Source of the DNA: Raillietiella orientalis
Taxonomy: Eukaryota
Assembly: GCA_036172245.1 (NCBI GenBank)
Contig: JAYWIR010000001.1
Location: 4,588,001 to 4,652,000 of the forward strand
Direction: 5' to 3'
Length of the DNA stretch: 64,000 nucleotides
The first letter of the stretch is position 1. Every line of letters starts with the position of its first letter. Positions 12,297 to 58,300 of the stretch are shown here, piece after piece. Under the pieces are notes generated by a model. It had not been told where the DNA came from, did no database searches, and saw only the letters and a program-made list of their open reading frames with translations. Position numbers and translations under genes: made by a program.

Positions 12297-15200
12297 TTAT
12301 GCTAGAAAACTGAATATGCTGCTTTTACTGCCACTTTCATTCACATTTGAAGTTTTGTCTGTTTTTGCCTTTTTAGATGGTGTTTTCTTATAAAAACTAA
12401 CGTCTACTGTGTCTGAAATTGTAGCTGATGCAGTTTCTTCCGTCTTGCTGAGTTTACTAGGGCTCACTGATGCAAACACAAAATTTCCTTTGGAATATGG
12501 GTTAGCAGATGCTGTTTTTGTAATTTCTGCCAGTTTATTCAGAGTTTGCTTGCTGCGACAAAGGAAGGAGCCCCAGGTGCCCTAACGTTTTATGAATTTT
12601 GGGTGAACAAAAACAAAATCATGCTTACATGCAGCTTATATGGATGTTTTGCTGATGGGGATAGGGATGATAGAATATTGGTTGCAGAACGCTGAAGAGT
12701 AGAAAATTTCTGTGCACCACACTTTCTTGCTTTTCTGTTACTTTCACTCCGAGAAGTTACAGGTGACTTCAGTTCTTCTTCCTAAGAAAAATCAGTCACT
12801 TCAAAACTACGTGACTCAAATCACATCTCACCTTATTCTGACTAGTTCTGAGCCACTGTTCCCTCTCAGATCGCAATTTTCTCCATTCACCATCGTCTAA
12901 TGGCAAATCCTCATTATCACAAAAATCCCACTGCATGGAGTGTACATTTTCTTCCCTATCTTGGGTTCCTATTAGGTAAAACAATCAAATGCCATCAGAT
13001 GCTCACCTAAATTTCGCCATCGGAACTTCCTCTGACGAATATGATCTGAATGTAGTTCTCCATTCTCCAGATAGAGCTCCTTGTAGAGAAGCAATTCTCT
13101 TTGGTCTTGATCTTGAAGCTGCTTTCTGAAAGCATCCAACTACTTCATAAATCAAATACCAACTTCTACTTACTGGTAGATACGACCAATTTCTTTGCGC
13201 AATTTTTCCTGCTCTTCAGGATCAATAGACGTGTCTTCTCGCCAGTCTTCTATACCAGCATCCTCCTCTGCAGAATCTTCATCTGAAGTAGCTTCTGAAC
13301 CTGACAGCTCAGCTTCCATATCCAAAAACTCATTTGGGCTAAAAATTCATCTTGTTTAAAAAATCTTCATGGTTTCACTCACATGAAGTTAGCAGATGAC
13401 TTGCTTGGACTTTTGGTTTTGGGAACTTGTATTTCATTCTCATCTGAATCATACAGTACTTCACCTCCTTCACTTGACTGCTCATCACATTCATCTTCAT
13501 TGTCTGCAATCAGAAATAAAACGATTGGTGTGTGAATACTGTCATACCTGATAGCAGCAAGATTTGTTGTCTTGTGAGACCAACTGGTTCCATTTCTTCA
13601 TCTGAACCATCAGATTCTGACAACTCTTTCTGACTGATTACCTGCTCATTTGTATGCTGCAAAAAAATTCAAATCGTTACCTATTGAAACGGCCAGAACA
13701 CAAATCTAAAAGTTCATCCATTGCTTCCTGGGTAGTGAATCTGTCAAACAGAGTATTATCCAGTTTGCTGTTGGGTTCCGACTTATCAAATGAATGGCAG
13801 TCTACAAAATTAGAAACATCAGCATCAAATACATTAACTTCAAAAAATTGTTTTCCAAAACTCAGCAAACAGAACACTTCTTGATTATGATATAAAGAGT
13901 TATAAATTATTCACACACTAAAACATGCTGAGAGTGCACACAAGACCAATGACAATGAACACATAACTAATTCTTAGTAAGTAGCATATGACATCCTTTA
14001 TTTTTTAATGACAAAGCAAATGTGAAATTTAAAATACACAATGAGCTACTGGTACCCACAAGTGGGGAATAAAAAACGTGAAAACCATAGACAATTGAAA
14101 TACAGAAGATACCACAGATAGCAAGCTACCTTTTGAGCTGGTTAAGTGTAGAAAAGAGAAAACTTCCGACCTTGGCAAGTTGAAATTGAAATTAAGATTG
14201 TTTTTAAAGTACCAGCAAACTTCGAACTGTTTGCAGACTAAAGGATGTTTTATTGGGTATTGGGAATGCCTGAAAGAGGGATAGGCAATAATAGAAAGCT
14301 TCTGGAAACAAATATTAATAATATGATGTTGATTAAGATTACTTTCAGAAAGCATAATGCATTCATATAAAGCATCTCATTTACACAAAAGGGAAAAATC
14401 CAAATAAGCTACTGTTATTATAAGAACATTGTATAAGACTTCAATACTTAACTGGTGATATGCTATTATTGTCGTGAGTTGTAATATGATGCACTTCAGA
14501 GATGTCATCGGAATCAGTCAGACTAGTCTGTGCTGCTGTGCTCTCTACTTAGCCAATACAGTTATGCATCCATAAAGCAAATTCCTCTCACCTTCTTCAG
14601 GTTCCACCAACAAATGCATTGTCTCAGCATCCTCTTCATCACTGGTGTCTTTTAAAGATGTAGCTGGAGAAGGACTGTAATGACTTTGTATCTGTTCAGA
14701 GACTTCATTTTCAATCTCGACTTCATCCAACTCCTCTGACATATCTTCTTCAGCTTCATCATCAATGAAAATGCTCCTCTTCTGGGTTTCACGGAATTTC
14801 TTTTCACTGTTTTGATTTTCTTCTTCACTGTCTTCTTCCTCCTCTTCACTTGATTCTGTTTCATTAGAAATGTATTCCTCTTCTTCTTCCTCTTCCTCTT
14901 TTGCTTTGCAGATAGAAGAGCTTTCTGAAAAACAGTCAAATCAAACCTAATACTTCCATCTTTGTCCATACTCTCTTCTTTTTCTTGACGCTTTTTCCAT
15001 TCCTCTCGACGTTTGCTTTGAATACGAGATCTCAATAGCTCTTTCAAATACCTTCGTTTATAACCTGGTTCAGAAGAGTGACACTCAGAACCATCTTTGG
15101 CAAGAGCAGGGCTGTATTGGAAACCATCCAAAATTAACTGCTCTTCACCCATCAGATCAGTTTCTTTTCTCAGAATGCTGCAACACAGTAGAATCATGAA

Positions 15201-16347
15201 ATACGTTTCATATCACTCACTTTACACGAACTGAAGTAGGAATGTGTGAAGCATTTTCAGAATGCTTTATGAATCGAGAAATTAAATGAGATATTCCACG
15301 TGTAGCCGAATAAGACTTACAATCATTAAGATCAATAATACCATTGGGGTCATCACATGATAGGAGCTTTGTATTTAAGTGGGGCTGGTCTGATGTCTTC
15401 TCAATCAAATCAGTAGAATTAGATGAAGATAGGCTTGTTGAATCACCTTCTCTTGCATGTGAATTTTCCTCAGTTGAAATTGCATGCATATCACTAAAGA
15501 AAACACTAGACTCTATACTGTGCTCTCTTTCTGATGAAACATGGGTATCCAAAAGCAAATGATCATTGTCCTCCTTGAGGGTTGTGGATTCTTGATCAGC
15601 AGAACAATTGCACTGAGAATCTGAATCATCAGAGTGATAAAAATTCTCAATGTTTCCTTCAAGCTTTTGCAACTGTGCTCTACAACTGAGTAAACTTAAA
15701 GTCAAGTCTTCTCACTTACATTAAATTGTCATCATTTAAACCTTTATTAAAGTGATCTGGCAAAATGAATTTTTTCCTTTTAATAAATTCGGAAAATGTA
15801 AGTTGCTTTGGTTTATGGTATGGAAGTGAGACATGAGCTTCCCGAAGCTGTTTTTGTATTTCACTATGTATCTTTCTGATTTCCTTGGCACTAAGTCTCC
15901 TTGAGAGATGCTGATAATTTATGTAATCTTTAATTTATTTACACATAAAAATATACGTACCTTCTTTTTTACTTTTGCTTTGTTCTTTCCGTCTATTTGA
16001 TTATTTTCTACATCTGAGTTATCTGCATTATATAGGTCAGGATTTTTATCTAAGTCATGAGGAAATTTCCCAGTTAAACTTTCCTCTGGAGGTTTGCTCT
16101 TTTGAGAATCTCTAATTTCGGAAAATCCCCCAGTATAAGTTTTACCAGCCTTTGGTGCACACTCGTTCAACTAGTTAAAGTGGAGCTTACTTTACGATTA
16201 TCCTAAATAAAAACTTACGACTAATGCATCATTTTCCTTATTATGTTCATTTTCCGTTTCTTCGTCACTACTTGATAATATGTTTCTTAACGTCTGTTTC
16301 TTCTTATGAACAATGCAATCAAACACTAAGGCTTCATCATCGGACAT
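12297..16347 (-). CDS. CLSPN: Claspin (Chk1 adaptor, replication checkpoint mediator), multi-exon
   Basis: Spliced by hand from ATG 16347 (MSDDEALVF) to TAA 12297. Claspin motifs: IHSEIQKQLREAHVSLPYHKPKQ, acidic tract, Chk1-binding TQEAMDELLDLCSGRF, FLDMEAELSGSE, RELLLYKELYLENGELHSDHIRQRKFRWRNL, GSFLCRSKQTLNKLA. GT-AG introns include 16218-16171, 15960-15911, 15719-15680, 15220-15178, 14971-14925, 13680-13634, 13547-13504, 13382-13339, 13173-13126, 13006-12969, 12831-12782 and 12629-12582. Boundaries of the ~0.6-kb intron near 13.86-14.45 kb are uncertain. Confidence 0.93.
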
Positions 16348-16530
16348 TTTCAGTTTTTATATAACAAAATAACCAATATTATTGGCAATGAGTTACAATT
16401 AAAACATGAACATGACGATCAAAAATTGAATCGTTTCTACGAGTGACACACCGTATTTCATCAACTACGGATGTTCGATGTACTTCCCAATTCAGCTCAC
16501 GTGCTCATATCCCAAAAGCAATAGAAAATC

Positions 16531-22630: not shown

Positions 22631-22646
22631 TTCTTGATTGCTCAAT

Positions 22647-24713
22647 TTATTTGAAGATTTTTCCCTGATTGAAAGGACGCCCATTTTCATCTGCTCCTTC
22701 ATGATTAAAATACTGCTCCACAAGTTTTTTGCATTCCTCAGAAGCAGGATCTAATTTTTTCCAAACATAGGACTCATAATCAACTTTCCAGTCTTCAGAT
22801 AGCTAAAGAAAATTAAAACATGCATTTTTGCTGCTAATATGACAAAAATACAAACTTCAAATACTAGATCGTGGCCTCTCCACAACCATACTCCTGATAT
22901 AGAACTGTTATTGTTGCTACCAAATAGGCACACAGATGCAAAGGCATTTTTACGTAGCTTATCAAGTCTCTGGAACATTCCTGAAAACACTTTGAAAAAA
23001 CAAATGCAGCTATTGCATACCAGAAACAAGATTACAGCTCATGAATACTTGTGTCAGTTCATCATTGTATTTGTAATCGCAAAACCACAAAGACCAATGC
23101 TGTGGATCAAAGTGCTTCCAAAAGTATGGTATTGATACTGCTGTGTCTTCATTTGAGTAGCATCGCTTGAAATCATCCAGAACAAATGTGCTATAGATAA
23201 GTAGTAAAAGTTTCAATAAAATACTAATTTACCCTTTGGGGTATTTTTCAAAAGGGTCAGCCTTCTTTGGTTCTTCAGCTAAAGCCCTTTCTGTTTCATC
23301 TAATTCCTCATTCTCGACTTTTACTGCTTTTTCAGGTTTCTTGGGATTCTTTTCTTTTTTTTTGGCATTTTCTGCCTTAGTTTTCGATTGAAACACCGCA
23401 TACTTCGTAGCATCAAATTCTGCCATCTTTTCACAGAGTTTAAGCTCTCCAACAACAGCCTTAACCTCAGGCTGGTTAACCATCGTTGAAAACCAACGAT
23501 TCACATTACAAAATGGTGCTCTATACATGTGTTATCCGAAGTATCAAAGCAGATTTAATATCACCTGTATTTAGGATCCAAAACATATTGATATGCTAGC
23601 AACAAAGTACAACAAACACAAATATCTGCCAGGGTTATTTTCTCTCCAACTAAGAAAGTATGGTGTAAAAGATGCCCATTTAATGTTGTCAGGGCTCTTT
23701 TCACATCTTCTTTTGCATGATCAGTTGTCTACTTCAATTACATCACCAGTGCAAAGTGTTTCCCTACCTGTTTATTGTATGCCATTATGCCCATACATGG
23801 AAATACCCATGTACAAGCTGCTGGCAAAATCTCACTATCAGCAAAACTCATCCATTGAATAATCTGTGCTTCTTCCAAATTGCTCTCTCCTCGTAACTGT
23901 TCACTGGCCACTTTAAATGTATACATGAATAGAGGTGGGAAGGAAGCAAATAGGTACTTACAATAATATGCAATTGCATTACTTTCAAAAATACACACAC
24001 CATCACTGCCTTCAAACGTAGGAACCTACAAAAAAGCTGTATGAGCAATCAATTATCATTTGTTCTCACAAGATGCAAACTGATGTGATGCACACAACAG
24101 TTGAATGTTATGATATTTATTTACCTCCTTTTGTTATGTCTTATTTTTAATTAAGACATCTTTGAAAGAGGGCTTGATATGTGGCTTACCTTACCAAAAG
24201 GAAACTTTTTCAAAAATTCTTCCGATTTATTTGTTTCTCCGAAAACAAAATCTTCAGCTATTTTTACATCCGCTTTGCTATACTGTGCAGCAATCAGGGC
24301 TTTATAAGCCCTGAAATTTTCGGGATATGTGTAAATTACCTGGAAATACACCACCATTACTGCTACGAAAAAGTGCATTCACATGGTACATGAATTTATG
24401 AATTCGATTCCTCGCGCAACCCCACATGCACTGCTTAGAAGTTTATAATCCAAATTTTCCTTATTACCCCCGTATAAAATTCTTTTTCAATAAGTCAATA
24501 GGCATTATGATTTTCCAATGTGGTTTAATTGAGCACTTTCTGCTAATATTTCAAAAATAACTGCAAGCTAAAAAAGCAATATTAAAATAGTTATGCTTAC
24601 TCAGTTTTTGTCTCTGACGCTCATTTTATTTACATCACTAAAATCGCATATTATAGTTCAAAAGAACACCGGAATTTAAAATAATAAGTATGCATACGTA
24701 CCCCAGAAACCAT
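22647..24713 (-). CDS. EEF1G: Elongation factor 1-gamma (eEF1B gamma), 9 coding exons
   Basis: Exons 24713-24702, 24339-24190, 24025-23962, 23910-23768, 23728-23565, 23520-23233, 23190-23021, 22980-22856 and 22802-22647, all GT-AG and in frame. Protein: [25 protein letters not shown]...FPFGKVPTFE...FESNAIAYY...NVNRWF...[15 protein letters not shown]...[22 protein letters not shown]...FNQGKIFK* (GST-like N-terminus plus EF1G domain). Confidence 0.98.
24058..24175 (-). ncRNA. Probable box H/ACA snoRNA in eEF1-gamma intron 2
   Basis: Sense strand: hairpin 1 (cctcttt/aaggagg lower stem, tgtctta/taagaca upper stem), H box AAATAA, hairpin 2 (tcataa/ttgtga lower stem, aactg.tgtg/caca.cagtt upper stem), then ACA+3 nt. 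Each upper stem sits 14 nt from its H or ACA box. The intron is 164 nt while the six downstream introns are 39-53 nt. Confidence 0.75.
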
Positions 24714-27700: not shown

Positions 27701-29867
27701 AAGACATCAAATTATGGCTTTGCTTCAAATTCTCGAAATAAAGATAAAGAAATTTTGGAAATTATTAATAAAATTCTACCTCCAACACTCCTAAAACAAT
27801 TGCAGCTTCTTCATAATCCCCATACACAAGTCTAATTCCAAATTAAATCAAATTTCGTTGATTAGACTCAAAGTAGCTGAAAGATTTAAAAATTTGAAGT
27901 TTCGTTACTTAATGAAAACATAAAATGGAAAAATGATTGAAAATTGCGCTAAATGAATGTTTCATTTTGTTTTACTTGTTTACACAATCAAAAGACTCAA
28001 TTAGCTATAAATGAGAGCATGAAAAGGGAAATAAAAAGAAAGAAAATTGAAAGGAAACATTATTCAATCATAAGAAGGAAAAGTTTCAATAAAAAAATGT
28101 GGCAGATAAAAAATTATCCTAAAGACAGACAAAAAAATTTGATTAATTGCACAATGCCAATGAGAATGTATTATTATATGGAGAGGATGGAAATTTCATT
28201 ATGAAGATCACTACTGCAATTAATTTGTATGTCAAAAATTGAATGAATGCTCGCGTACCACCACTATGTATTCGCAAATTATTTCGAAAACGTGCGTTCC
28301 CTTTTAGGCATAATATGGCACACAAATAGATCGAGAAAAGAAAACAAAAATATCAGAGATTGTTTTGCAAGACTCTGGTCCTAATTTTTCATAATACTAT
28401 AATTGGTCTTAGAGCAGCATTACTGATTCTTGATTTCCAATAGATTCTGACTGCAAACGCCAAGAAAATCAACAGAAAAATATAAAATAATGTATGCCAA
28501 TTTGGAAGACATGAATAATATGCTCTTATTTCTCCCATTATATCTAATATATAGATGGTTCATATATAGAATATCTGGTGTTTAGAATAAGCTCTGCATT
28601 CTCAGTCAGTCACAGTAAGTCGTATTCTAGATCAGAGTTACTTATTTTATTAACCCAATTAATTATTAACCTTTATGTAATCAAATCACTTCGATTAATA
28701 TAAACAATCAGTCAGCTCAAATGCAGTTAAAATATGGTTCATTAATACTCTGTCTTAACATTAGACAATATGTTAATCCCTGTGTTGAATAAAACTTATT
28801 ATTCATCGTGCTTTCACTTATATTAATCTTTATTTAATTATTCCCTTCTTTTTTGAAAGGAAAAGATACATGAGTCATTCAGAAAGTTTGCATTAGTACG
28901 AAAACCAAATCCAAAACGACGGAAATTTTCTTCTGCGCCATTTTTAACAGAGAAGTTTCGGCTTCAAGTATGAAGATACTACACATCATTTAGATTCATT
29001 AAAAAAATTGTGTTAGATTTGGGCATATTTGTTTTTTACCATAAAATTCTTTCTTATCAATACTCACGAGAATACATAGAAAAACACACACACAAAAAAA
29101 CATTGCCATAGCTAGAAACTAAAAGGATGAGAAATACTAGAACAATTGAGAAGAATTAAAATTGGATGCAAAAACTTCAGAAAAATAGGATAAAACAAGT
29201 TAGTTCAAGATTTTTTGCTAGTGTTAAAGTTATATGCAAGAATGTAAATTAGCAACACAAGAAGAGGCAGATGTAACGAGTTAAGGCATCATATGAAGTA
29301 ACGAACACATCAACTTGTTATTCAATCCAATTCAGTTATTTGAGCAGTAATAAATTCAAAAATAAATTGAATCAGGAGAATTAAATTTGATATTATTTTC
29401 CATTGTGAATAGTGTCTTTTAAAAGATTCAAACTCAGTTTCGTCCCTCAGGGGAGTATGGAACAATTGGTAGGCTTGTGTTGTTTAAATTATGTTTCTGT
29501 ATTCACGTTCTAAATTCTCCGAAACTGCCGGTGCGCTTAAGCATGCGGTGTGCGTTTGTCGGTAGTGTTTGTAAATTTCTCATTCATTCGTTTACAGGTT
29601 TTGCAGAATAATCATTTCATATATAATTAGTCAACATCTGAGTCTGTATCAGTGCTAATTATCGGTATGTAAGATAACACAGAGTGCATTCTTCTATCCG
29701 GATGCGTTAATTTTGCAAGCATCTAATTTTGAATGTGCATTAATTGAGTACCATTCATGAAGTCTTAATGAAGGACATGTACGCATGTTTAGTCTGAGTG
29801 GAGTTTGTTACTGGCAGCATTAAATCAAGACATTAAGAAATGGTTAATATTGACGTAGTTTCAAAGC

Positions 29868-32470
29868 ATGCAACAGCATCCACTTGTTAATTTGCAAAAT
29901 CAGTCACAAATTAGTTCAACTGGACAACAACAGATTCCACCAGCTCAAGTGCAGTCTTCTCAACCTATTCAGTCTCAGCCATCAACTTCTCAAAATCAAC
30001 AACCAGTGCAAGATTCGAAAGCAGATCCTGTATTTAAAATCAAGAGTCTGATTTGGCCTTTAAAAGAAACTATTACAGTAAGTTAGAAAATGAATAATAA
30101 ATCTACAGTAATTTTCAAAGCAAATCTTTGAAACTTAGTGCATTCACAGTAACAATACGAGTGAATTGCTGCTGGTATACGTGTTAGTCCATTCTCACTT
30201 CAGAAATAGCTTTTCCTTTAAGGTAGTCCTATTGAATAGCATTATCGTTGACATGATCAAATGACAGAGATCGATACGTATTTCACCCGACTATTGTATC
30301 AAATCAATGTGTGAAATTTGTTTACTCATTTTGTAAAATTAGAGGTTACACAATTTTGTTTTGTGTTATACTAAGCAGTATTTTAGACCATTCTACAGGT
30401 GAATGAATACTTTCTGAATTGATAAAAGCAATGTGTGCATTCTAAATTATACACGGATTCTATTGTGTTCGTTTGTATTTTCATGTATTTGTCTTGAAAT
30501 TCTTGAATTTCATTTCTGAAGTCTTGGATGCAAATGTTTTTGAATTGTACTTAAATGATATATCCTTGAAAGTATATTTCTAGATAATCCTCCCCCAAAA
30601 TGGCATGTAAAGAATTACCTGGTTTTCAACAACCTGTTGATCGAAGTTTTGATTAGTTTTTTCACATTCCAAAACTGTTCTGTGGTCACTGAAGGAATTT
30701 CTTAGTTGTCAGCATCAGAATTCTTTGTAGACTACGGAAGTATATGTTTGAACTAAATCAAGAATATGTTTTAAGTACTTCTTTTTAATTTTAAGTTTAA
30801 TTTCTATGATGGATGAGATGAGATGAGATGACTAAGCATTGCATCATTTAATGATAAAACCATTCAATAAAACCTTTAATAAAAGTAATAAGTCATTTAG
30901 TAAAATCATTTAATGATGGTTTTATTGAATTTTTCAAGAGAACTCTCCTGAACTCTCTTGCCCAAGAGAACTCTCTTGAGAATTCAGTAAAGACCATCAT
31001 TAAATGGTTTTACTGAGTGACTTGTTGCTTTTATTAAAGGTTTTATTGCTTGGTTTTATCATTAAATGACTGAATGCTTAGTCATCTCATTTAACAATTG
31101 TACAGATTTCTTAAAAGCACTTCAATAAAAATTTCAAAGCATGTTGGAAAAATGTTTAAATTTCAGAATTGTAATTCAAATTTCAGGCTAATCCTAGAAT
31201 ATTCAGGTGAATCCTTGATATTCTTTTATTTGTGGTCTTACTGTTGTTTTGTATAGTTATCCAATTCGTTATGAAAGTATCAGTTATTTTCTCTAGTTAT
31301 TAAGATGTATGTTGAAAAGAAGAAATGAAGAAAAAGCTTTTGCTAAGATTTGGTAGCCTTACAATGCATTCAGTTTACAGTGTGCAAAGTGATGTATTGG
31401 AATAAATGGAGGATGAGGTGCAATTCATGATGTGATTGTTTTTTTTTTTTTTTTCCATTTGGGCTGGAAGTTGTAGTTTTACTTTAAAAATGTGAGAATG
31501 TTCTGGGATTACTTTTAAAGCTAATTGGTATTGTCAATTTGGATAACCCATGCATTGTGTAAAGTGGTTCAAAGTAAAGTACAACATCTTTTGTGATTTA
31601 AATTAATATTTAAAACCTTTTTCTAGGGTTTGCCTTAAATTAGATTGATGCGCTTTACAACTATAGAGGGAAAACTTTTCTGTCATTTAAAATAACCATT
31701 ACATGTGTAAGGAAATACTCTTAATTAAGGACTTTGCCTGCAATATTTTGACATGTGCTAGGCAAATGGTTGAGTAGACATCATATTGTTTTATCTATCA
31801 AGAAATCAGACATATCTTGTTCTTGAATTCATATAAAACAGTATTTTTTTAATAAAGTAAAAATGAAATAAGGAGATGAAATTATTGAACTTCATAAATT
31901 TTGTATAGATGTTATTCATTTCTGCTTATTATTGCAGTCCACATTTCGTTTGGCAGCCCAAAACCTATGTGTGAATGGTGCCATTGATGTTGGTACTTGG
32001 TGAGTTATCCTCTGTTTATTTAAATAATTCCTGTTAATAAGGAAGGGAAGTGACCAGCCCATTGCACGATTTGATAAGAGTTTAGAAGATTTTTGTGTTT
32101 ACTGTGATCAAATAGAGTTTCTCTTAGTAAGAGTACTTTTATGTGTAAATTCTCATTCATAATAAATATGACAGAGAACTGCTTTGGAAGTACAGACTCA
32201 GGGTATTCATAGCCAACGGTCTACACAACTGCCAGTAGCCCCTCAGAAAACTGAAGCATCAGTTGGTACTACACAAGCTCCTCAAGAGCCTTCTTTGAGC
32301 TGTATGCAGTATATGGCTTTAGTGCACTCGCAGGTGAATCAGCTATTTATGACATTATTTTTATTTTGTTCATTGGAATAGCATATTTTCATTGTATTTA
32401 GGTTGGTTATGTACGTGAGATACAAAATTCCTTAATTGAAGTAGCCCACGACATTAATCCAGAACAATAA
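29868..32470 (+). CDS. MED29: Mediator subunit 29 (intersex homolog), 5 coding exons
   Basis: Exons 29868-30077, 31938-31999, 32042-32126, 32175-32333 and 32402-32470. Q/P-rich N-terminus, then DPVFKIKSLIWPLKET...AAQNL...IDVG...ARFDKSLEDFCVYCDQIEFLLRTALE...LSCMQYMALVHSQVGYVREIQNSL, matching the Med29/Ix domain. The start codon is less certain. Confidence 0.92.
30823..31090 (+). repeat. Long inverted repeat (~115-bp arms, ~30-nt spacer) in MED29 intron 1
   Basis: Left arm 30823-30940 (atgagatgactaagcatt...ttcaagag) is the reverse complement of right arm 30973-31090, apart from ~7 substitutions, two small internal loops and two 1-nt bulges. Confidence 0.95.
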
Positions 32471-32475
32471 AGGAC

Positions 32476-32991
32476 ATGAGTGTGAATAAATGTACTTCTG
32501 AATCTGCAGAACCCCTAATAGAACAGTCTTGGCTTGATAGTCATTTGTTGGCATGTGTAGATAATGATATCTCTGATCTCAGCATCCAACAACAAATTGA
32601 ACAACGTCTACAAGGCAAACAATGGAAGGACTATCTTAAGAAGTATAGTTGCAGTGATTGTGATGATTCTCAAGCAGTGCAGCTGACCAAGCTAAGAGTT
32701 GTGAGACATCGTATTCGTAATCACATGTTGTCCCCCCCTTATCAATGTGAATTTTGCTCTGAGGAGTTTCCCAACAAACCTGGTCTGCAACGCCATGTAA
32801 AATACCATGTGGAGCAAGCGAATTTTGCTTGCAGTATATGTGGTCAGACCTTTAATAAAGGGAATCTGGCCAAACAGCATATCATCAGCCACCTTTTGGG
32901 AAAACTGTCTTGTTCGTGCAGCTTCAGTACACGTTCCGAGTTTCATTTCCATCAAGGAGGCAAGATCTATCGTTATCGGGTGTGTCTGTAG
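32476..32991 (+). CDS. C2H2 zinc-finger protein (171 aa, 3 fingers plus a partial fourth), single ORF
   Basis: CSDC...HRIRNH, YQCEFCSEEFPNKPGLQRHVKYH, FACSICGQTFNKGNLAKQHIISH, then CSCSFSTRSEFHFH. A 516-nt open frame in AT-rich DNA. Confidence 0.8.
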   Translation: MSVNKCTSESAEPLIEQSWLDSHLLACVDNDISDLSIQQQIEQRLQGKQWKDYLKKYSCSDCDDSQAVQLTKLRVVRHRIRNHMLSPPYQCEFCSEEFPNKPGLQRHVKYHVEQANFACSICGQTFNKGNLAKQHIISHLLGKLSCSCSFSTRSEFHFHQGGKIYRYRVCL

Positions 32992-35900
32992 TGAACCATG
33001 TGAAACTTGCCCATCTTGTCATAAGAAACTGTTATTTTCATTATGAAATTCAGTGTTTTTCCATGTGAAAACTGCTGAGAAAGATTATTTTCTTATTGCA
33101 TTTTGGTTTTCAAATTCTTATTGCAAGTTGTTAATTGACTATTTGGTTTAAACCCTTTTTAGATTAAAGGTATATTGGGGTAGATACCCACCATTAAGAA
33201 CAGTGGACACAGAACCTGAAAATAAATTTAGTTGTCTAGACAGGAATATGATCTGTGATGTGATCCACGCCAGTTTACTTTGACTTCTGCTAGATATCGA
33301 ATCCTTGAGGTTGCTGAGTCATCTGTCTTAGTGGCACCCCTCATACTTGACAGGGAAATTTCTAATGCTGTTGATAAGCTGAATACGCCATGATCAGTCT
33401 GTTAACTAGACATCAAACAGAATTTGTTCTATGGGCTATTATAAAAAGTAAAGGTTTACTTACTAACGACATGCTAGCAAAGTATGGAATCGGTGTGACT
33501 TGACAGTTCTTTTCAATGGGACTGTGGATGGAAAACCTTGGACTGTGTCACCAGTGAGATTGCCGAATCTGTCAGGAAGCTTGTCTTCTTGGACCAGTTT
33601 GGGAAAGTCACTTCAGTTTTGATGAAGAATATAGCCATTAAGTGCTCACTTATAACTGGGAAGATTTGCTGATGGCAGGCACTGATGAAGAAAGGTGCAA
33701 CCCCCTAGAATGGAAAGGAAGACGAAAGAAACGTGGATTTGGAAGAGTTTTTTTCTGTATCAACAGCACCGACTGCTGGGACTGGCACTACTGAAATGTG
33801 CATAGTGCTTACTGTTTGGTCGCAATGCACGTTCTTCCTAAGCGTAGTGTGGAGCGATTCCGGTGCATACCCTCACAGGAGTTGAGGACATGTCAGTTGG
33901 CAAAACCGACACAAAGAATTCACGAGGTCTTTGTGAATCCGTCAAGACTGTGAATTTGGTAGCATCGATGTGCCAGCGATAGAAATGTGTACTCTCGTGA
34001 GCGAGGAGTGAATTGAGAAAATGCGTAATCGGGGTTATTCCGAGTTTCTCAGTATCAGGATTTCCATAGAGCAATCGAATACCACCGAAGAATTGGAACT
34101 TTGCAGATTGGGAGTAACGAAAGGAGAGTACTAGTATTCCATAATGTGAGGTGCATCAAGATCTCCCAGGCGACGTGTGTGTTACCGCACACCGAGTCCT
34201 CTTTCGACCTTTCCCGAAGCTCAGTGTCATCCGGTGCAAGTTGCTGGCAAGGAAGGCATCGACCTACAGAAGTTTGTGCAAGAGAAATATCATCGTTCAT
34301 GCTTGCTAGCGTAAAACTGCAGAAGAATAAAGCTCAAGGACGTCGAGAGTGCGAAAAATATGCGACAGAAGCTGAAGGTATCTTTAGAACAATTGAATAT
34401 GTGATATGATTTGTCAAAGAAGCCAAAGGAGGAGGAATAATGTATATTCCAAGTTGGTTCAACTTGAACCATTGCATCTGTGACGATATTGCTCCACTTC
34501 GTAAGTCGGATTTATCATTGGCGGCGCCGCTGTGGAGTCGGTGGACCCGACCAGCCCACCAAGATACGGAAAGAGGGAAACCAGCACGAAAGCAGTTCAC
34601 TGGGAAGGACAGCATGGTGGACCGAGAGCATCGCAAGCAGCAGCGGTGTCACCAGAGGTTTGCTAAAGGCGCATTTGTGCGTCTCGGTTGCGTCACGACC
34701 GGGTCCTGCTCTGGTGATCTCCTAGTAACGAACCACGTGAAACCTTGCCCACCTTGCCATGATAGGAAAACGCATGTTTAATAGCAGTGTTTGTTTCTTA
34801 GTGTGAAGTTCGGTGTTTGCCCACTGGGAACCTGCTGTGAAAAATATTCTCCCATTGCAACTTATGTGATCTTGATTTCATTCTTTTTGCTTGGTCTTCG
34901 TAACCGAGCGAAGTTTTGAAAACGAAGTTCTTTTCAGTTTTGTACCAGCGGAAATCTCCATCAATCTGTTTTCACGTGATCGAGCCGTGCACTACATTTG
35001 CAGATGTATTCGATGCAGGACCTTGCTCCCCATCCGTGGATTAAGGAATTAAAAAGGACAAACTGTGCCAATTTAAGGAGCCATGGCATGGGAAATTCAG
35101 TGCCATTCCTGACAAACAGTCAGCCTTAAAAATAACACCACGGACCATTTGAAACAAGGAAACGTGGTCGTTACAGAAATTTTCTGTACAGATATTTTCA
35201 GGATCTCAAAGAAGAGAAGCGAGTCCAGTAGAAAATATAATAACATAACATCTTTACAATAACGGAATAATTTTCAAGGCGTACCGAAACATTTGCTGTC
35301 ATGTGGTCAAACAACGCACGTGCTCAACCCTTTCAGTGCTTTATTTTTCATTTACTTTAAGAAGTATAGTTTAGTGCTTTCCTCCACATACGCAAATGGG
35401 AAAAGACATTGATTTCTAAAACTTCGGTTTTTACTTTTGAGAAGCGCGAACTCGCATCCGTGTGTGGTGGCAATCGTGCAATTGAGTCTGGCATATGTAT
35501 TTCGTGTGCACGAGGCATCCAAAAAATACTGAAGAACGTTTTTTTCTCAATCGCTCGTAAAACCTTTTGGAGATGCAAATACCTTGTGTGAATCCACAAT
35601 GAGAACTGTGGTGCACACTTGCATCATAGCCTCATCTGATAAAAACTGACGTGCTTGACCGCACCTAACGCTGTAAAAAATCCACATTTAGGAAAACTCA
35701 AACTTCAACCGCATGAGGATATATATCCTTAGGATTGAGATTGCATACACTGGTTGTCTTGGTAAGGGAAATTGTCGAGGAAGCGAAATCATGTCAATCT
35801 TAGCTTGCATTCAAGCCAAAAGAAATGTACAACCCAGTGAATATCCAGGATGCTGGAGAAGGTATCCAGTTAATGGGAGAAAGGTGAAACTAATGAGAAT

Positions 35901-38811
35901 GAAATTACTGATTCGAAACCTTCCAGGTTCGTCGTGAACAGATGTTTAATAAGTTATTAGCGAATCTCAGCATTTATAAAGAAAACATTGCAAATAAAAA
36001 TAGGCAGAAAAAAAAGTGCTTTGAAGAGGAAACTACTGTTGAGAGAGGAAACGATACGGTTTCTTTTCCATCTCTGCTTCAAATTCCATAGTAAACAAAA
36101 GTCAGCTGAGATTTATATGTGTGTCGTCTTGGCCACATGTATTCTAAGAATATGAGAGAACTGACATGAGGAAAACGAAAATATTCTGCTCTCATTGTCG
36201 AATTTATTTGTAATACTTTTTCTACATAAATTATGAAGAACGTCAGTTACTGGCAACTAGTTTCGAAATGATTTGACAGGAATGTTACCTCTCGTAATTT
36301 GATTTCTCATGGTGTTACTCCAAGATGCCTCCTCCCCCCCTCTTATGTAGCCCTTTCAATAATTCAACGAAAAAATTAAAGACAAAACGGAAAAAGGAGA
36401 AAAAAAATAAAAATGAAAAAATATCTGAAGAGATCGAGAATAGCTACCAGAGATAAAAGGATTGGTGATAGATAGCATTATTCATTAATAATAAGTAATA
36501 GCAAAGTATAAACGGATATTATTCTAGAAAAAAGAAAGAGCAAATTACTATTACTTTATTTTGCAAAATATTCTTTTAATCAATTCAGCCATGACGTAGG
36601 AAATGATGCCTTTTCTCCAACAATTTTCAAGGGAAACGCTGAAAACAGATTCAGCAAAGCAAGGAATTCTCACAAAAAAAACGAAGGCATGTAATGTGAT
36701 CGCATTTGTGATTTCCTATTTCCTATTTTCCTTCACATCTAGAGAAGTAACCTTAATTCTTGAATACTTTTCTGTCAGAAATAAGCGAGGGATATGATAC
36801 TGATAAATAAGGCAGCAAATACAGGAAATTTTAGAAATTATGCATTTGTCTCCAGAAATATACCTAGAGCAATTTTAACAATGCTAAACTACTTTTGTTA
36901 TTTAGTCCAACTTTCTAGAAAAATACATTTCTACTATTGCAAGGATTCTCTCGACTGTTTTCCGGGGGATTTTTGTGATAAGTAATAGTCTTTTGTCAGA
37001 TTAGTATTTTAGCTAATGCACTTCCTTTGTTCAAGAGGGTCTATCTCGGGATTACATTCATAAGTACTAGTACCGTTTTTTTGTGCATCCAATGAAAATT
37101 CCAAAATCACCTCTATCAACTGAGCTTGCGATGCAAGCAAAGTTTGATTCTTGAATACCTTATTGACTCATTCATACTTTAGGATATTGTGGGAGTACAC
37201 AGAACATCAATTCCTTGATGCTGATTTTAGAACTCTGAAAATTTTACGGTTTCTAATATGCGTGCATTCTTTATCAAACCACAAAAACATATTTTAAAGT
37301 TGATTTTGATTCCAGTGTTTTTGGATTCTGCTCGTTATCTTAATGTTTCGGTGCTCATTTATTTCTCAGATTTTTTTCACTATTGTGTTGTGTTTTCTCT
37401 TTTAATATGCTTATTGAAACATAGCTCATTAGGTTAAATTACACAATTTACTTCTATACAAGTTACTGTCATAAATTACACCATTTGATTCTGTTCTACA
37501 GAAGTTACTGTCTCACTGAGCCTATTCCTTATCTGGTAAACAACAACTAAAAGTGTTCTGAAAGACAGGGCTAGGGAAAAATTATTTCATTAGCCTTTCA
37601 GACTCAATACAATCAAGGATTTCAGGTAACCAAGGCAATTATGAAACTAAGACCGCAGTGCCCTCAGTCAGCTCTAGGAGATCCGCCTTCTCGGGCGATG
37701 TCTCGGCGTTGCTTTCCTCGCCCACTGACTAGCTTTTCGCAAAGCCAAGGAAATTTTGGAAAAGGAAAAGCATACGAGGAAAATATTGTAAAGGAAGACG
37801 AAATCAACTTTGATTTGGCTTATGAATAAATAGAGACATCAGATTCTTTTTCTGAGGCTCAAAAACTAGCAAATTGTTATGCAAATCTGATTTCAGCAAG
37901 TCTTCGCAACAAAAGTTTGGTATCCCTGAATGGTTGACCGAGTCGCAGCTAAGAAGGATATTGTTTGTGTTCTTGGGATAAAACTAATACTCTCCTGCTG
38001 AATCGTAATTTACAGTAACTAATTAGAGGATCTATCAATTTTGAAGAATGCAATTCAGAGTACTGTTTTTCCATGAAAGGACATGCACGGTTGACCCCTA
38101 ATCCAGTGCGAGTGGTCTTCGCGAGTGCTCGGTTTAGCATGCGAAGAAAACACACAAAAAGGAAATCTTGTAACATTATAAATGTTCTTAGAAACTTTGG
38201 CATTGAATCTTCAAAGTATTTCGTCAGTGTTATGAGCACTTGAAGCTGATTCCGAAATATCAATTTGAACAATGAAAGTCAAAAAAATTACAGCCAAGTA
38301 ATATTACATACAATCAAATAAAGACACAGCAAGCCTTCGAGTTTCAAAAACAGTAGTTCCAAATTCGAGCAATTTCAATAGTTTCCTTCAAAGTGGGAAA
38401 AAATGAAGCTGCTAATGCTGCTATTTTCAGTGAGGGTCAGCAAGTTAACTTGATCGATCTTATACAGCTTCTTAAAACGATTCTAAAATATAAATATATG
38501 CAGATAATCTCTCGAAATGAAAAACTACCCACAATGGAGACAGTCAAGTATTCAGTATCTCTAAAAAAACAGTATCTCTATTGGCAGGTGGGTTCAGGTC
38601 AACTTTGCATGCAAACTTATCGAGCGACTGGCAAATACGGACAGAAAAATCACACACGAAGTGACGGTTGGAATGTATGCTTAACGTCAGAAATCACGTC
38701 GAACAGTCAGTCATGGTCACTACCACTTTTGCCTTACACATTGGTGTGTAAAATGAAGCTTAGTTCAACGCACACCAAGTCTGTAAAGGCAAACGAAAAA
38801 GAGCCCACCTC

Positions 38812-39985: not shown

Positions 39986-40392
39986 TCAGTCTTCACCAAT
40001 ATGTTCTTCAATTCCATCACTTTCTGTTACCAATGCTCTTTCTAATATGACTCTACCTTCTTTATACCGTTGTGTTTCTTCTAATGCAAATTCATAGATC
40101 CAGCCTAGTTTTGCATCACAATTTTTGCATGTAACATCCCTCACCATGTGTCTGCCAGTTAACATAACCCTGTCTTGCACTTCACTGATAAGAAATTGGA
40201 AATCTGCACAACTCAGGGTAGATTTACAGACCTGTAATTCAAATTAACCACTTTATTAAATAAGAAAGCTCTTCCAGTTGCACCTGTAAATCTTGTACTA
40301 ATTAGTTCTCCTCGATTTGTTAAGATTGTATCACATGCTGCACAAGAAAATAACCTGGTACCTCCTATATGATCTAGAAAAATCCTTCCCAT
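39986..40392 (-). CDS. YPEL5: Yippee / YPEL5-like zinc-binding protein, 2 coding exons
   Basis: Exons 40392-40232 and 40184-39986 (47-nt GT-AG intron): [87 protein letters not shown]...[22 protein letters not shown]. Confidence 0.97.
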
Positions 40393-43144
40393 TATGTGTT
40401 TGTGAATGCTAGAATCAAAACACAAATCAGTACATGGATATTTCACTGTGTATATTATTCACAATACAAACATATTTTTAGCAATTCTCTTAAACATTAT
40501 TTGATCAAATGCTCATAGATCTCTCTATATCATCACAATGATCATAAAATAATCTAGAAAATATATGGATTCTTAAAAAGCAAATCTTACGCCTTACTTT
40601 TCACTAGCAAATGATTCAATTATTTCACAATGTTTGTGAAACAATGTAAGATTTTTCCAAATGAACAATACATGCTACTATCAGATGCTCCCATCGTTGC
40701 TACGGGACAAATCTTTTCCCTTGTTGTACTCAAAGCTTTACACCATGAAAGAATTTCTTTACATTTGCACAAACAAAGCATTAAAGAAATATGCCACGAT
40801 ATGTTTTCTTTCTTACTACCTTGAAAAAGCCTAGCATGTTAACTAAACAATTGCATACTGACCAGCAATATCTTTTTTGTGTACATAAAGCTTAATTAAA
40901 AAAGTAACAGTGTTATAAAAAAAAAAAGTCAATCAAATTTAATCACAGAAAATTATTTATTCACACCTAAATTATTTGGTGCTGGAACAAAACTTTCTTC
41001 AAAATCCCCATACAGTACTATTCAAAGCAAACACAACAACTAAAATTCGATTACATCAATTCAAAAAACCACCTAACAAAAGTTTCGCACTCAAGAGGTT
41101 GAACAAAACTCTTTAAAAACATTCGGAATACATGCACTATTGGAGATAATTCACATAAAAAGACAACTGAAATTCACTGATCATAATCTGATTAAAATAT
41201 TTTTTTTAACGCAGTACAGAAATTAGACTGACACCAACTTCGAAGATTTTATCGTATTATTTTGATTTTGCAGTTCTGCCAACATAGTCAGCAATTTTCA
41301 ATAGTTTCGCAACTATCAGTATGAATATATGACATAGCTCAAAAAAGTATCAACATAAATAGTGTTAAAAATTTTTAAATTTACATGCATTCTCCAAATT
41401 ATATGCATTTTGAAAAAATAAATTCAAAATGCTAGCGGCTTTCAACATATTTGATGACAAAGCACAATGTAGGTATGTATCTTTTCGATTTAGGCAGCTT
41501 TTTATTTTTTACATTGTATCTACATATCTTATAGGCTAAATGAATTCATAATCTCAGCTTATGTATGACAATGACTCGCACATTACTAATAGGTGTGAGA
41601 AGTCCTATGCATTAGCAATAATGTCGAAAGAATATGTATGTTTTCTGATAATAATTCAGATAGTTTTAAGATCCCAATTTTAAGCAAAGAAGGAAGCAGA
41701 ATGCAAAATTCGTTAAAGAATGCTTTATGAGGGTACACCATGATTTTTTCAATAAAGAAATCCAAAATTGAAATTCTTTTACAAATAACAGAGGAACAAT
41801 CAAATCATCCTTTTGCAAATCGGTAAAAAAACTTTTTTCCATCACCTCATCTCCAGTATGGGACTTGGTTCCTTTTTCATTGCTTTGTAATATTAGTTAA
41901 AAATCTAAATTAATCAAGAAAACTGAGCGGCTCTATGCTAACTGGTACTTCTGAGAGGAATTATTTTTATTAATAAAGATTGCTTTTGCATATCAACTGT
42001 GCTAAAATACAAGAATACATCTTACAAGAAGCAAATGCATAAGAAAATGATCACAAAAGAGAATCATTAATGCATGTCCAAAATCATGAGCTGCAAATAC
42101 AAAATTGAAGGGCAAAAACAAGCACCAATAATCATTATATCTACAAATAGGAGTGAAAAATGAACTGAAGATCGGATATGGAATGTTTTGAAAGATTCAA
42201 AAACTCAGTGGAGTTTACATTTGGCGACTACAAAAACGTTTTATACAAACGATCGAGGCCAATTATACTTAATCACCAATGAACTGTTATGTGCAGCATA
42301 AGTCTTTTAGACAGTTTCGTAGTACAGGAGACTTTATGAAATGAGTTAAATGCTTAAAAATTCAATGTGAATCTTTGGGAAAGCATTCCTTAATTTATAT
42401 TTGCAATGTAAAAAAACACTTCAAACTTGTATGTATTATGATTTCTTGCTATTACATAACTGTTTGCTAATGCAGGATTTCAGGAAATTCTGTTTCATTT
42501 CCAAAGTAATTAAATGATTTATGAAACATGTATGCGGTGTTCATGGTTTATTTTCCTGTTAAAAGAACATATGAAAACTCCTGATGACTCATTTGCAATG
42601 GAATTAAGCTCTTGCACGAAAATGTTCCAAGTAAATTCTATCTCACAATGAACATAGTATTCAAATACTAGGTTCATCATAGTGGCATTTTTTTTTGTTT
42701 AAAGTACAATGCATTAAAATGTAGAATTTTCAAAATGGCTTTTGAAAAGTGGCTTAAAATCGCAATCAACATTTATTCTTTTAATGATACTTGTCCTCAT
42801 TAGACTCAAGTCGTCACCATTCCCTGTTCTTCCATCATTCTGTGGATTCTCTTGAAAAAAAGGGAAACAAAAATGCAAGCGAAAAGAACACCTTCATGAA
42901 TATGAGTCATCTTGTTAATGGTAAAATCATGCCTTAAAGAATTACCATCATGCTTTTCTCTTAAATCGTATTTCGATCAGGTCTTGAAGCAGCCATCCTT
43001 GGTGCCTTTCTCAAGGAGAGACACCCAAAATGGTGCAGAATCAGGTTGATTGGATGCGTGAAGATGCTTGGAGCAACAAGCATACGTTCATCTTAATTGA
43101 TCAAAAAGCGAACCTCTATTGACAACAGCTGTGTTGTTGCTGTG

Positions 43145-43916
43145 GGTTTTCTTTGTTCTTTTTTTTTGGTTCGCCAAGTGCTGAAGAACCGTCTGCATTT
43201 TTCAGGAAGAGGGCTCACGGAGTTCTTTAACTCTTCCCACGTCACCCGAAGGTATGTGGAAATTCTTCAAGTTGCGGGGCAGCCCTGGAGGGATCACCCC
43301 ATGAATCCAGAAGAAGGGAACTTCTTTCTTGTTCCCTCCGGCACGGTCTCCCGGAGGGGAACACTCCTCCTTTCTTGTTAGAAACCGCTACCAGTGCCGC
43401 ACCCGAATTGAACCCGGAAAGGATCCGCTACTGAATTTCTTCCCCAGAAGGAACCACAAGGGAGCCGCTCCTTGTTTCTTCCTCTGAAGAGAACCCCGAA
43501 GGGACGCTTTCGAATTTTCTCTAAAGGGTCGCTCCCCTAAGGGAGCAGCGCGCTTCCTCACACTTTGGAGGGGTGTCGATCCACCAGCTCCATGGTACGA
43601 AATAGAGGGTCCCCCCTTCGGAGAGGATCGCTCCATTTTCACAACCGGAGGGAACCCCGAAGGGAACCGGTTCCTTGGTTCCTGGAATGACTCCTCAAAT
43701 TCCAATCCCGGCCAGTCAACGGGGGCACCCGGTTTCCAACAGTGTCGCCGCACCCGAACGCTACAGGCAAACCAGCGTCATCCTTCAGGGGGGACTCGAA
43801 TACCCACAACGCACCCCCTATTTCTCGGCGTCGATCCTTCCCCGGGCGGGATTCGAACCCGTTCCACCAGGTGCCGCACGCGGAGAAACCGCAACCACGC
43901 GGCCGAAGACGCGGGC
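43145..43916 (-). mobile_element. Full-length SINE-like copy with tRNA-like head and A-rich tail
   Basis: Sense strand starts GCCCGCGTC...TGGTTGCGG (A-box-like)...GGGTTCGAATCCCG (B box) and ends gaaccaaaaaaaaagaacaaag. Confidence 0.85.
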
Positions 43917-54864: not shown

Positions 54865-55288
54865 AGCCCGCTAGGGAACCGCTCTTGGTTTCTTCCTCTG
54901 AAGAGAACCCCGAAAGAAGACTTTCCTATTTCTCTGGAGAGCGCTTCTTGCACTCTGAAGAGAATTTACCCGAAGGAAGTACCAACTAGCCCCATGGTAC
55001 GGCTCCCATCTTCACAACCGGAGGGGAACCGGCGCTCCCTGATTCCTGGAATGACCCCGGAGGGTCAACTTCCAATCCCGTCCAGTCAACGTGAGCATCC
55101 GGTTTCCGCCAGTGCCACACCCGAAGTCCCTGACTCCAACCAGCGTCATCCTGAGGGGGGAGGGAAATCGCAATCCACGACTCCTCTCCTCCCATTTCTC
55201 GGCATCGATCCTTCTTCAGGCGGGATTCGAACCCGCGACGCTCTGTGCCACGCGCGCTGACCGCAGCCACACGACCGCCGACGCGGGC
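54865..55288 (-). mobile_element. 5' part of a SINE-like copy
   Basis: Sense strand GCCCGCGTCGGCGGTCGTGTGGCTGCGG...GCGGGTTCGAATCCCGCC...ggatgacgctggttgg...ctccggttgtgaagatgg. Confidence 0.85.
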
Positions 55289-57525: not shown

Positions 57526-57664
57526 TGGACCGATCCCTGAGGTGCTGGAATACCGCGACAGGAGAGGAGCAAGCCCCAAGCATCCCGTCCACTTCCAAAA
57601 AGTAGTTTAACATACTGGTCACCAGATAGATGGGACATCAGATATTAAACAGATAAGAACAGAT
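57526..57664 (-). pseudogene. U2: U2 snRNA 3' portion (from ~nt 39), degenerate
   Basis: Minus strand ATCTGTTCTTATCTGTTTAATATCTGAT...TTAAA..CTTTTTGG (Sm-site-like)...GGGGCTTGCTCC...GGTATTCCAGCACCTCAGGGATCGGTCCA follows U2 stems IIa-IV, with a deletion in stem IV and a mutated loop IV. Confidence 0.92.
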
Positions 57665-58300
57665 TTATTTCAAGTATTTCTGTATTCTTACATGAAAAGA
57701 TGAAGTGAATGGCTCTGCTGTATCTCTCTTTCTTCCGCTGACAGGTTCCTCACCCTTCAAGAGTTTGAGGAGGGATTTTCTTTCTTTCCAGCTGTTCGTG
57801 GATTGATGGCAACGTACAGAGGATGTCATAGACGGTGCGTCCAGTAGATATCCCTGCTGTATTGGATGCATGAGGTCACCTTCAAGTGCCTTCTTGTCTC
57901 CGCATACCGCTTTGGGATACCTGGCTCACGGATTACTCCACCATTGCGTGGGTTCCAGGTTCCCAGTGTACCGACGATAATAGCTTGACATCCTTTCTTC
58001 CTCAGCAGTTAGGCGATCTCTTGGTATTTCTAGTCTTTTTTTTCGTTCTTGAGAGGCTGAATACCTCCTCGGTGTTGTCGAACGGACAGGCGACTTCAAG
58101 GATGACCATTCTTTGAGACCTTGTTTGCCTTCTGCAGCACCAGATGAGGCTGGAGTCGCACACAGGCACAAAAACATTCGCCCGCAACAGACTCCACCCT
58201 GCGGTATCCTTTGTCGCTGCAGGCAACCTTGCCACGATGCATCACGCCTAGCTGTGTATAGGGGAGAAGGTCTCACGCAGTGATGCAAGCCTAATGCAGT
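57665..58300 (-). mobile_element. 3' end of a Utopia-type (NeSL/R2-group, RLE) U2-targeting non-LTR retrotransposon, 5'-truncated and decayed
   Basis: Frameshift-corrected translation LHHC...YTARRDAIVARL...LQPHLVL...VILEVACPFDN...K..KY...IIVGTLGTWNPRN...YSRDIYWTH* (stop at 57826-57828) is a restriction-like endonuclease domain. The ~160-nt 3' UTR ends ...gaaataa and joins U2 directly at ATCTGTTCTT. Confidence 0.88.

Follow-up and report, generated by a model that had tools for sequence, protein, structure and literature searches.

In a 64,000-nt stretch of Raillietiella orientalis DNA (GenBank assembly GCA_036172245.1, contig JAYWIR010000001.1, positions 4,588,001 to 4,652,000 of the forward strand; hereafter the window), we found that an open reading frame (ORF) encoding C2H2 zinc-finger (ZnF) motifs begins five nucleotides after the stop codon of the gene for the Mediator subunit MED29, called Intersex (ix) in insects. 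The locus is most likely of the bicistronic type, a kind already known in animals. We tentatively favour, at slightly less than an even chance, an arrangement of two separate cistrons in one transcription unit that would be gated by the choice of polyadenylation (poly(A)) site, with the ZnF protein arising either through coupled termination-reinitiation or from an internal transcript of short length. An earlier sequence-only reading of this DNA had remarked that the arrangement seemed undescribed, and a literature search likewise found no description of a MED29/ix-zinc-finger arrangement.

The junction between the two genes reads CAA TAA AG GAC ATG, with the MED29 stop codon at 32468-70, the AG at 32471-72 and the ZnF initiation codon at 32476. 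An AATAAA hexamer (32466-71) overlaps the stop codon, and its final base is also the A of this AG. The frame of the ZnF ORF is -1 relative to that of MED29 and is open only from 32458, a TAA at 32455-57 closing it upstream; the ZnF initiation codon is the first ATG of this 177-codon open frame, at codon 7, and has a G at -3. On rereading, the junction coordinates, the 5-nt spacer and the AATAAA over the stop were all exactly as the sequence-only reading had given them, and a script confirmed the phase-0 donors that it had assigned to MED29 exons 1, 3 and 4. The coordinates of all features of the locus are collected in Table 1.

In insects, MED29/Intersex is the cofactor of Doublesex-F. The coding sequence (CDS) of the gene identified here has five exons and 585 nt, equivalent to 194 codons and a TAA, in an exon model that was checked by script. 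All introns have GT/AG ends, three of them being just 42, 48 and 68 nt long, and an in-frame TAG at 29856-58 precedes the ATG at 29868. Exon 3 matched profile positions 42-69 of the Pfam Med29 family (PF11568) at 29.1 bits, above the cut-off of 25.2, exon 4 matched profile positions 70-119 of 139 (E 0.0033) and exon 1 gave a weak match of residues 51-69 to profile positions 2-20 (E 0.068), the three exons thus following the profile in colinear order. Exon 3 also aligned to residues 93-119 of the 200 residues of human MED29 (7emf_2, E 4.8e-5), which are colinear with residues 92-118 of the 194 found here, and human and mouse MED29 chains were matched by this exon at E 3.5e-5 to 7e-5. Exon 2 alone had no match in Pfam, and exon 5 alone, too short to score, had no direct match; exon 5 presumably resembles the C-termini of human and fly MED29. 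The profile has 20 positions left after exon 4 and exon 5 has 22 codons, the total length being 194 residues versus 200 in human. Because these leftover positions fit exon 5, MED29 appears from its sequence to be complete at its own stop without the ZnF ORF.

The coding character of the ZnF ORF was examined with a codon table trained on the MED29, elongation factor 1-gamma (EF1-gamma) and Claspin exons of the window (959 codons in total), using as controls 102 non-coding ORFs that were free of stops and had 50 codons or more. The codon-usage log-odds of the ZnF ORF were +0.20 bits/codon in frame versus -0.57 and -0.39 off frame, and held-out MED29, EF1-gamma and Claspin exons scored 0.27, 0.22 and 0.44 bits/codon respectively. 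The total of 35.3 bits was higher than that of all 102 controls (maximum 25.7), and no other plus-strand ORF between 24.5 and 39.9 kb scored as high. The signal was strongest in the first 55 codons, which had 0.45 bits/codon versus -0.85 in both other frames (control maximum 0.375) and a GC content at third codon positions (GC3) of 0.29, like that of the neighbouring genes (0.27-0.32). Because the strongest signal lies there, the sequence directly after the MED29 stop behaves as native coding sequence. The finger part scored 0.15 bits/codon with a GC3 of 0.41, and the extreme C-terminus may have been added recently by read-on. When the AT-rich 22-kb part was shuffled 200 times, a stop-free frame of at least 177 codons was obtained once.

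The domain searches pointed in the same direction. The ZnF ORF matched Pfam zf-C2H2_4 (PF13894) at 34.9 bits (cut-off 27, E 1.7e-8) and zf-C2H2 (PF00096) at 26.8 bits (cut-off 25.2), in two stretches corresponding to fingers 2 and 3. Both are canonical C-x2-C-x12-H-x3-H fingers and retain all zinc ligands. Finger 1 was missed by Pfam zf-C2H2 and by a custom finger hidden Markov model (HMM), and a block formed by residues 53-138 can be aligned with three CTCF fingers in a row (CTCF 347-428). Where the sequence-only reading had counted three C2H2 fingers, we can thus retain two as canonical, the first being irregular in its 15-residue loop and H-x4-H ending, though aligned to a CTCF finger. The first 55 and the last 31 residues had no Pfam match, and a single-sequence AlphaFold2 model was unusable, with a mean predicted local distance difference test score of 38.3. 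From the Pfam matches, the CTCF-alignable fingers and the neighbour-like codon usage, the ZnF ORF looks truly coding.

On a less favourable reading, the ORF would be an untranslated relic, or a young lineage-specific ORF, derived from a C2H2 gene of which a fragment ended up in the MED29 3' untranslated region (UTR) or downstream of it; it would have no function of its own, its frame being open only by recency and its adjacency to MED29 accidental. We consider this unlikely, although it would account for the failure to find either an orthologue or a specific family, for the irregular loop of finger 1, for a last stretch of 31 codons with degenerate Cys/His and no coding signal, for GC3 values of the fingers and of this tail (0.48) above those of the neighbouring genes, and for short repeats of finger-knuckle DNA directly past the ZnF stop. 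It is harder to reconcile with the rarity of a 177-codon open frame in shuffled sequence, with the location of the strongest coding signal in the N-terminal 55 codons, which contain no finger and have a native-like GC3, and with the retention of every zinc ligand in both canonical fingers. Moreover, decayed fingers downstream were undetectable in any frame, and the flanks showed neither a target-site duplication nor a poly(A) tract.

Immediately beyond the ZnF stop, at 32996-33010 and 33061-33075, there are two 15-nt copies of the sequence coding for the finger 'knuckle' (compare 32743-32757), possible remnants of fingers since lost. Decayed extra fingers in this region, a possibility prompted by repeats of 15-24 nt, were searched for and rejected when the finger HMM gave no match in any frame. 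No further coding exon was evident downstream of the ZnF ORF, and no copies of 33000-36000 were found elsewhere in the window.

Searches for relatives of the ZnF ORF returned generic zinc-finger proteins. A near-length search gave one generic match, at 28% identity, among 11 candidates. In a full HMMER search, the 150 matches listed of 60028 were all multi-finger proteins of 781-5807 amino acids with 27-38% identity; ZnF residues 1-13 were covered by none of those 150, and with such long multi-finger proteins the search was uninformative for orthology. A scan of the JGI metagenomes gave 66 pattern matches, of which 0 were confirmed, and the ESM Atlas gave generic C2H2 clusters. When other genes of the window were used as queries, the MED29 exon-3 frame had no candidate among longer proteins, a Claspin exon found nothing among longer proteins either, and an EF1-gamma exon found nothing useful in the ESM Atlas. 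Since the MED29 exon-3 search was also empty, the clade seems to be unsampled in the searched libraries.

In the arrangement that we favour, of two cistrons gated by poly(A) site choice, the ORF would encode a small, lineage-restricted three-finger C2H2 protein of its own and not a Mediator fusion. The steps at the level of RNA and of translation are those that we infer from the anatomy of the locus. Because there is no room for a promoter in the 5-nt gap, transcription of the ZnF cistron would have to pass through MED29 sequence. If the tandem AATAAA hexamers (at 32466 and 32485) directed cleavage, the product would be an mRNA for MED29 alone, its 3' UTR being a few tens of nucleotides long and the ZnF cistron cut off, and bypass of these hexamers to signals approximately 170-230 nt past the ZnF stop would produce an mRNA with both MED29 and ZnF. 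The ZnF protein could then be made by coupled termination-reinitiation, with a stop and a start 5 nt apart in different frames, or alternatively from a short-leader transcript starting in the last 70-200 nt of MED29.

The AATAAA that overlaps the MED29 stop may be a real poly(A) signal. The stop of EF1-gamma (22647-49) also lies inside an AATAAA (22646-51), with no other AATAAA seen in approximately 200 nt beyond, and a stop-overlapping AATAAA was present in two of the four genes checked; the frequency of this hexamer on the plus strand is about 2 per kb. Some of the features of metazoan dicistronic genes were found here as well, namely two ORFs on the same strand, a spacer of 5 nt and a coding signal in the downstream ORF. 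The neighbourhood is not compact, since approximately 6.3 kb separate EF1-gamma from Claspin, and because of this the 5-nt spacer is locally exceptional.

Several observations weigh against this arrangement. With regard to the ORF itself, 14 of the 102 non-coding controls reach its per-codon score, its last 31 codons are without coding signal (-0.085 bits/codon in frame, GC3 0.48), and no orthologue was found in the protein and metagenome searches. With regard to translation, leaky scanning to the ZnF ATG was excluded because seven ATGs intervene between it and the start of MED29; the MED29 ATG has an A at -3. Reinitiation after an ORF of 194 codons is inefficient without special elements. The motif TGGGA was absent from the 243-nt spliced junction region (158 nt upstream of the ZnF ATG plus the initial 85 nt of its ORF), and no unusual RNA structure was predicted in the same region (fold z -0.09). 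Finally, the downstream ORF of the lemming locus of Drosophila is poorly translated (PMC3372440).

The short internal transcript could also belong to a gene in its own right. The ZnF ORF would then be an independent overlapping gene, expressed as an ordinary monocistronic mRNA from a start of its own in exon 4 or 5 of MED29 or in the intron between them. MED29 mRNAs would end at the proximal AATAAA sites. Such an internal promoter is consistent with an ORF that is coding-like from its first codons and with a tandem AATAAA that is well placed to end MED29 transcripts. A start past about 32410 leaves no upstream ATG, and a start in exon 4 leaves only short upstream ORFs (8-32 codons), none of which extends past the stop of MED29. 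The promoter would, however, have to sit within coding exons and introns of 42-68 nt, its transcript would carry both AATAAA hexamers near its own 5' end, and the 5-nt spacing in a gene-poor neighbourhood would be left unexplained. On balance, we find an independent gene improbable, to much the same degree as a relic.

The possibility that the AG at 32471-72 serves as an acceptor in cis-splicing was weighed as well. A phase-0 donor of MED29 would then produce an in-frame fusion, or a shared non-coding leader would produce a monocistronic ZnF mRNA. As the sequence-only reading had claimed, splicing from the phase-0 donors would fuse the two genes in frame: the products from 30077, 32126 and 32333 to 32473 are all open, with 242, 291 and 344 codons. 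That reading had also likened the acceptor to that of MED29 intron 2, and both are indeed AAG acceptors in a similar AATAAG context (aacaataaag/G and ttaataag/G), the latter already in use; however, the candidate is poorer than all four real acceptors. It has the lowest pyrimidine (0.42) and T (0.21) fractions of the five, the real ones having 0.47-0.74 and 0.37-0.58 respectively. A branch-like TTAAT motif is found about 15 nt upstream of the AG, and the candidate acceptor at 29816-17 hints at a 5' leader exon. On the other hand, a CAG at 32461-62, 10 nt upstream, would be preferred, and its frame stops after 8 codons. By our own estimate, the chance of a phased AG in the 7 possible positions of this short open stretch is about 0.4, and because of this chance of a correctly phased AG before the ATG, the AG itself is unremarkable. 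Furthermore, the ZnF ORF has its own ATG one codon past the AG, and a fusion from exon 4 would lose the last exon of MED29.

The literature bears on splicing in both directions. Alternative ix/MED29 isoforms are found in several insects, and the word 'zinc' is absent from the review that treats them (PMC8000406). The literature searches gave nothing relevant on a bicistronic MED29 or an intersex dicistronic zinc-finger arrangement. We conclude that the spliced fusion is disfavoured on the sequence, and use of this AG in cis-splicing is very unlikely. The sequence-only reading had proposed a switch with three outcomes, and what the anatomy supports of it are the two separate coding units sharing transcribed DNA and a plausible poly(A) signal at their boundary, while the fusion outcome suffers from the weak acceptor and the CAG competitor. 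The full three-output version, in which MED29 alone, a reinitiation-coupled MED29 and ZnF, and a minor in-frame MED29-ZnF splice (30077, 32126 or 32333 to 32473) would all be produced, we regard as scarcely probable.

A fusion by programmed -1 frameshifting was also considered and rejected. The two frames overlap by only 10 nt (32458-32467), where none of six slippery heptamers tested occurs, and no X XXY YYZ pattern was seen by eye.

The same AG could be an acceptor for trans-splicing. In a spliced-leader (SL) operon without intercistronic DNA, a capped leader would be joined 4 nt before the ZnF ATG, and each transcript would yield either a MED29 or a ZnF mRNA and never both. An AATAAA followed by an AG and a downstream ATG is the architecture published for such operons, mutually exclusive processing included (PMC1488885), and the introns of 42-68 nt in MED29 are in keeping with it. 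However, only about 2 nt of 3' UTR would remain in a MED29 mRNA that ended at the AG, the acceptor is weak, and the surroundings are poor in genes and rich in repeats and not operon-dense. Rfam found no SL RNA family above threshold, only a U2 snRNA, which in a 64-kb window has little weight. Alignment of the neighbouring proteins with human Claspin and MED29 is good, which is less typical of fast-evolving operon-rich phyla. An SL operon is therefore a doubtful explanation, and we give it little credence.

Compared with known systems, the locus has several partial precedents. The cholinergic locus (ChAT/VAChT), with its shared-leader nesting, and read-through or conjoined genes have one promoter for two coding bodies, by way of alternative splicing or read-through; here, unlike in the ChAT/VAChT locus, the second coding body is found after MED29 and not inside its first intron, and the acceptor is weak. 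Another likeness is to Drosophila dicistronic loci such as lemming, stoned and snapin, in which the ORF for a small subunit of a conserved multiprotein complex lies upstream of an unrelated and poorly conserved second ORF on the same strand after a short spacer. In lemming (lmgA/Apc11 and lmgB), mono- and dicistronic RNAs are reported, with an mRNA 3' end near the boundary (PMC3372440). The spacer is 92 nt in lemming and 5 nt here, MED29 has four introns and 194 codons, and its downstream ORF has a recognisable DNA-binding domain.

The SL-resolved operons of Ciona intestinalis and the SL1-type operons of C. elegans also lack intercistronic DNA, with mutually exclusive processing expected, and share with our locus the order of poly(A) hexamer, AG and downstream cistron (PMC1488885). 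In those operons an ordinary 3' UTR precedes the boundary; in our locus the MED29 stop codon is 1 nt from the AG. A stop and a start within 20 nt of each other and out of frame are the geometry reviewed for reinitiation after long ORFs, as seen in the calicivirus and influenza B systems of the termination upstream ribosome-binding site (TURBS) type and in a few cellular mRNAs (PMC10275272). Unlike in the TURBS systems, the motif UGGGA, which pairs with 18S rRNA, is missing around the MED29/ZnF junction, and no unusual structure was found there.

Table 1. Features of the MED29/ZnF locus, in positions of the window.
Feature	Position	Strand	Remarks
MED29 exon 1 (CDS part)	29868..30077	+	Gln-rich N-terminus; phase-0 donor gtaagt
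MED29 exon 2	31938..31999	+	62 nt; donor phase 2; followed by 42-nt intron; based on frame closure of the 585-nt CDS
MED29 exon 3	32042..32126	+	85 nt; AAG acceptor ttaataag/G; phase-0 donor
MED29 exon 4	32175..32333	+	159 nt; phase-0 donor
MED29 exon 5	32402..32470	+	last 22 codons and TAA at 32468-70
AATAAA overlapping MED29 stop	32466..32471	+	candidate proximal poly(A) signal
5-nt spacer AGGAC	32471..32475	+	AG at 32471-72 is a candidate cis- or trans-splice acceptor
C2H2 ZnF ORF	32476..32991	+	171 codons; ATG 32476, TAG 32989-91
Second AATAAA	32485..32490	+	within ZnF codons 4-5
Finger 1, atypical C-x2-C-x15-H-x4-H	32644..32724	+	residues 57-83; read from translation
Finger 2, canonical C2H2	32740..32808	+	residues 89-111; best stretch for Pfam zf-C2H2_4/zf-C2H2; finger HMM 17.9 bits
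Finger 3, canonical C2H2	32824..32892	+	residues 117-139; second Pfam stretch; finger HMM 10.7 bits
C-terminal tail	32896..32988	+	codons 141-171; degenerate Cys/His pattern; no frame with a codon-usage signal
Distal candidate poly(A) signals	33163..33226	+	ATTAAA 33163-68 and AATAAA 33221-26; 172 and 230 nt past ZnF stop

Two further observations were made within MED29 and upstream of it. Intron 1 contains an inverted repeat resembling a miniature inverted-repeat transposable element (30823-31090), with arms of 128 nt that are 84% complementary and 12 nt apart. The pyrimidine-rich sequence tttgttactggcag at 29816-29817, 50 nt 5' of the MED29 ATG, resembles by eye a splice acceptor, and given this resemblance MED29 may carry an upstream non-coding leader exon.

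The neighbouring genes EF1-gamma, Claspin and a Yippee-family gene are all on the minus strand. The EF1-gamma gene (22646-24378) encodes GST_N, GST_C (E 2.7e-10) and EF1G (E 1.8e-26) domains, and its end hints that in R. orientalis poly(A) signals may overlap stop codons and 3' UTRs may be very short. The Claspin gene (approximately 12297-16356) has many exons and very short introns; one of its exons aligned to residues 1104-1145 of human Claspin (PDB 7pfo_Q, E 1.1e-7), with no match in Pfam. The Yippee-family (YPEL-like) gene at 39986-40458 matched Pfam Yippee-Mis18 at 28.5 bits (cut-off 26.6) and lies, in convergent orientation, about 7 kb beyond the ZnF ORF.

A U2 snRNA gene or pseudogene was found at 57540-57703 on the minus strand, full length against Rfam RF00004 (57.1 bits), among GC-rich repeats. 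GC-rich dispersed repeats with a tRNA T-arm-like GGGATTCGAACCC core occur at 43814-43882 and 55188-55256, and also at 43458, 44275 and 54872; they are probably a tRNA-derived short interspersed element. ARAGORN found no intact tRNA. The flanks of the window, with the dispersed repeats, have 45-61% GC versus 30-40% in the gene-bearing middle, and because of these long repeat-rich, GC-richer stretches we do not consider the MED29/ZnF locus to be in a compact region.

What the locus means depends on how the ZnF ORF is expressed. If it is only a relic or a gene with its own promoter, this would be ordinary tight gene packing. If a fusion isoform did exist, it would join the Gln-rich N-terminal part of MED29 to three fingers, producing a fragment of the Mediator tail with its own DNA-binding domain. 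According to PMC10275272, it is not known which rules of distance reinitiation after a long ORF follows in cellular mRNAs. If one unit expresses both proteins, transcription, and maybe translation too, would link a subunit of a general coactivator to a DNA-binding protein with sequence specificity. The locus would then offer a compact example from nature of the way in which a second long ORF, a few nucleotides past the first, is expressed in animal cells.

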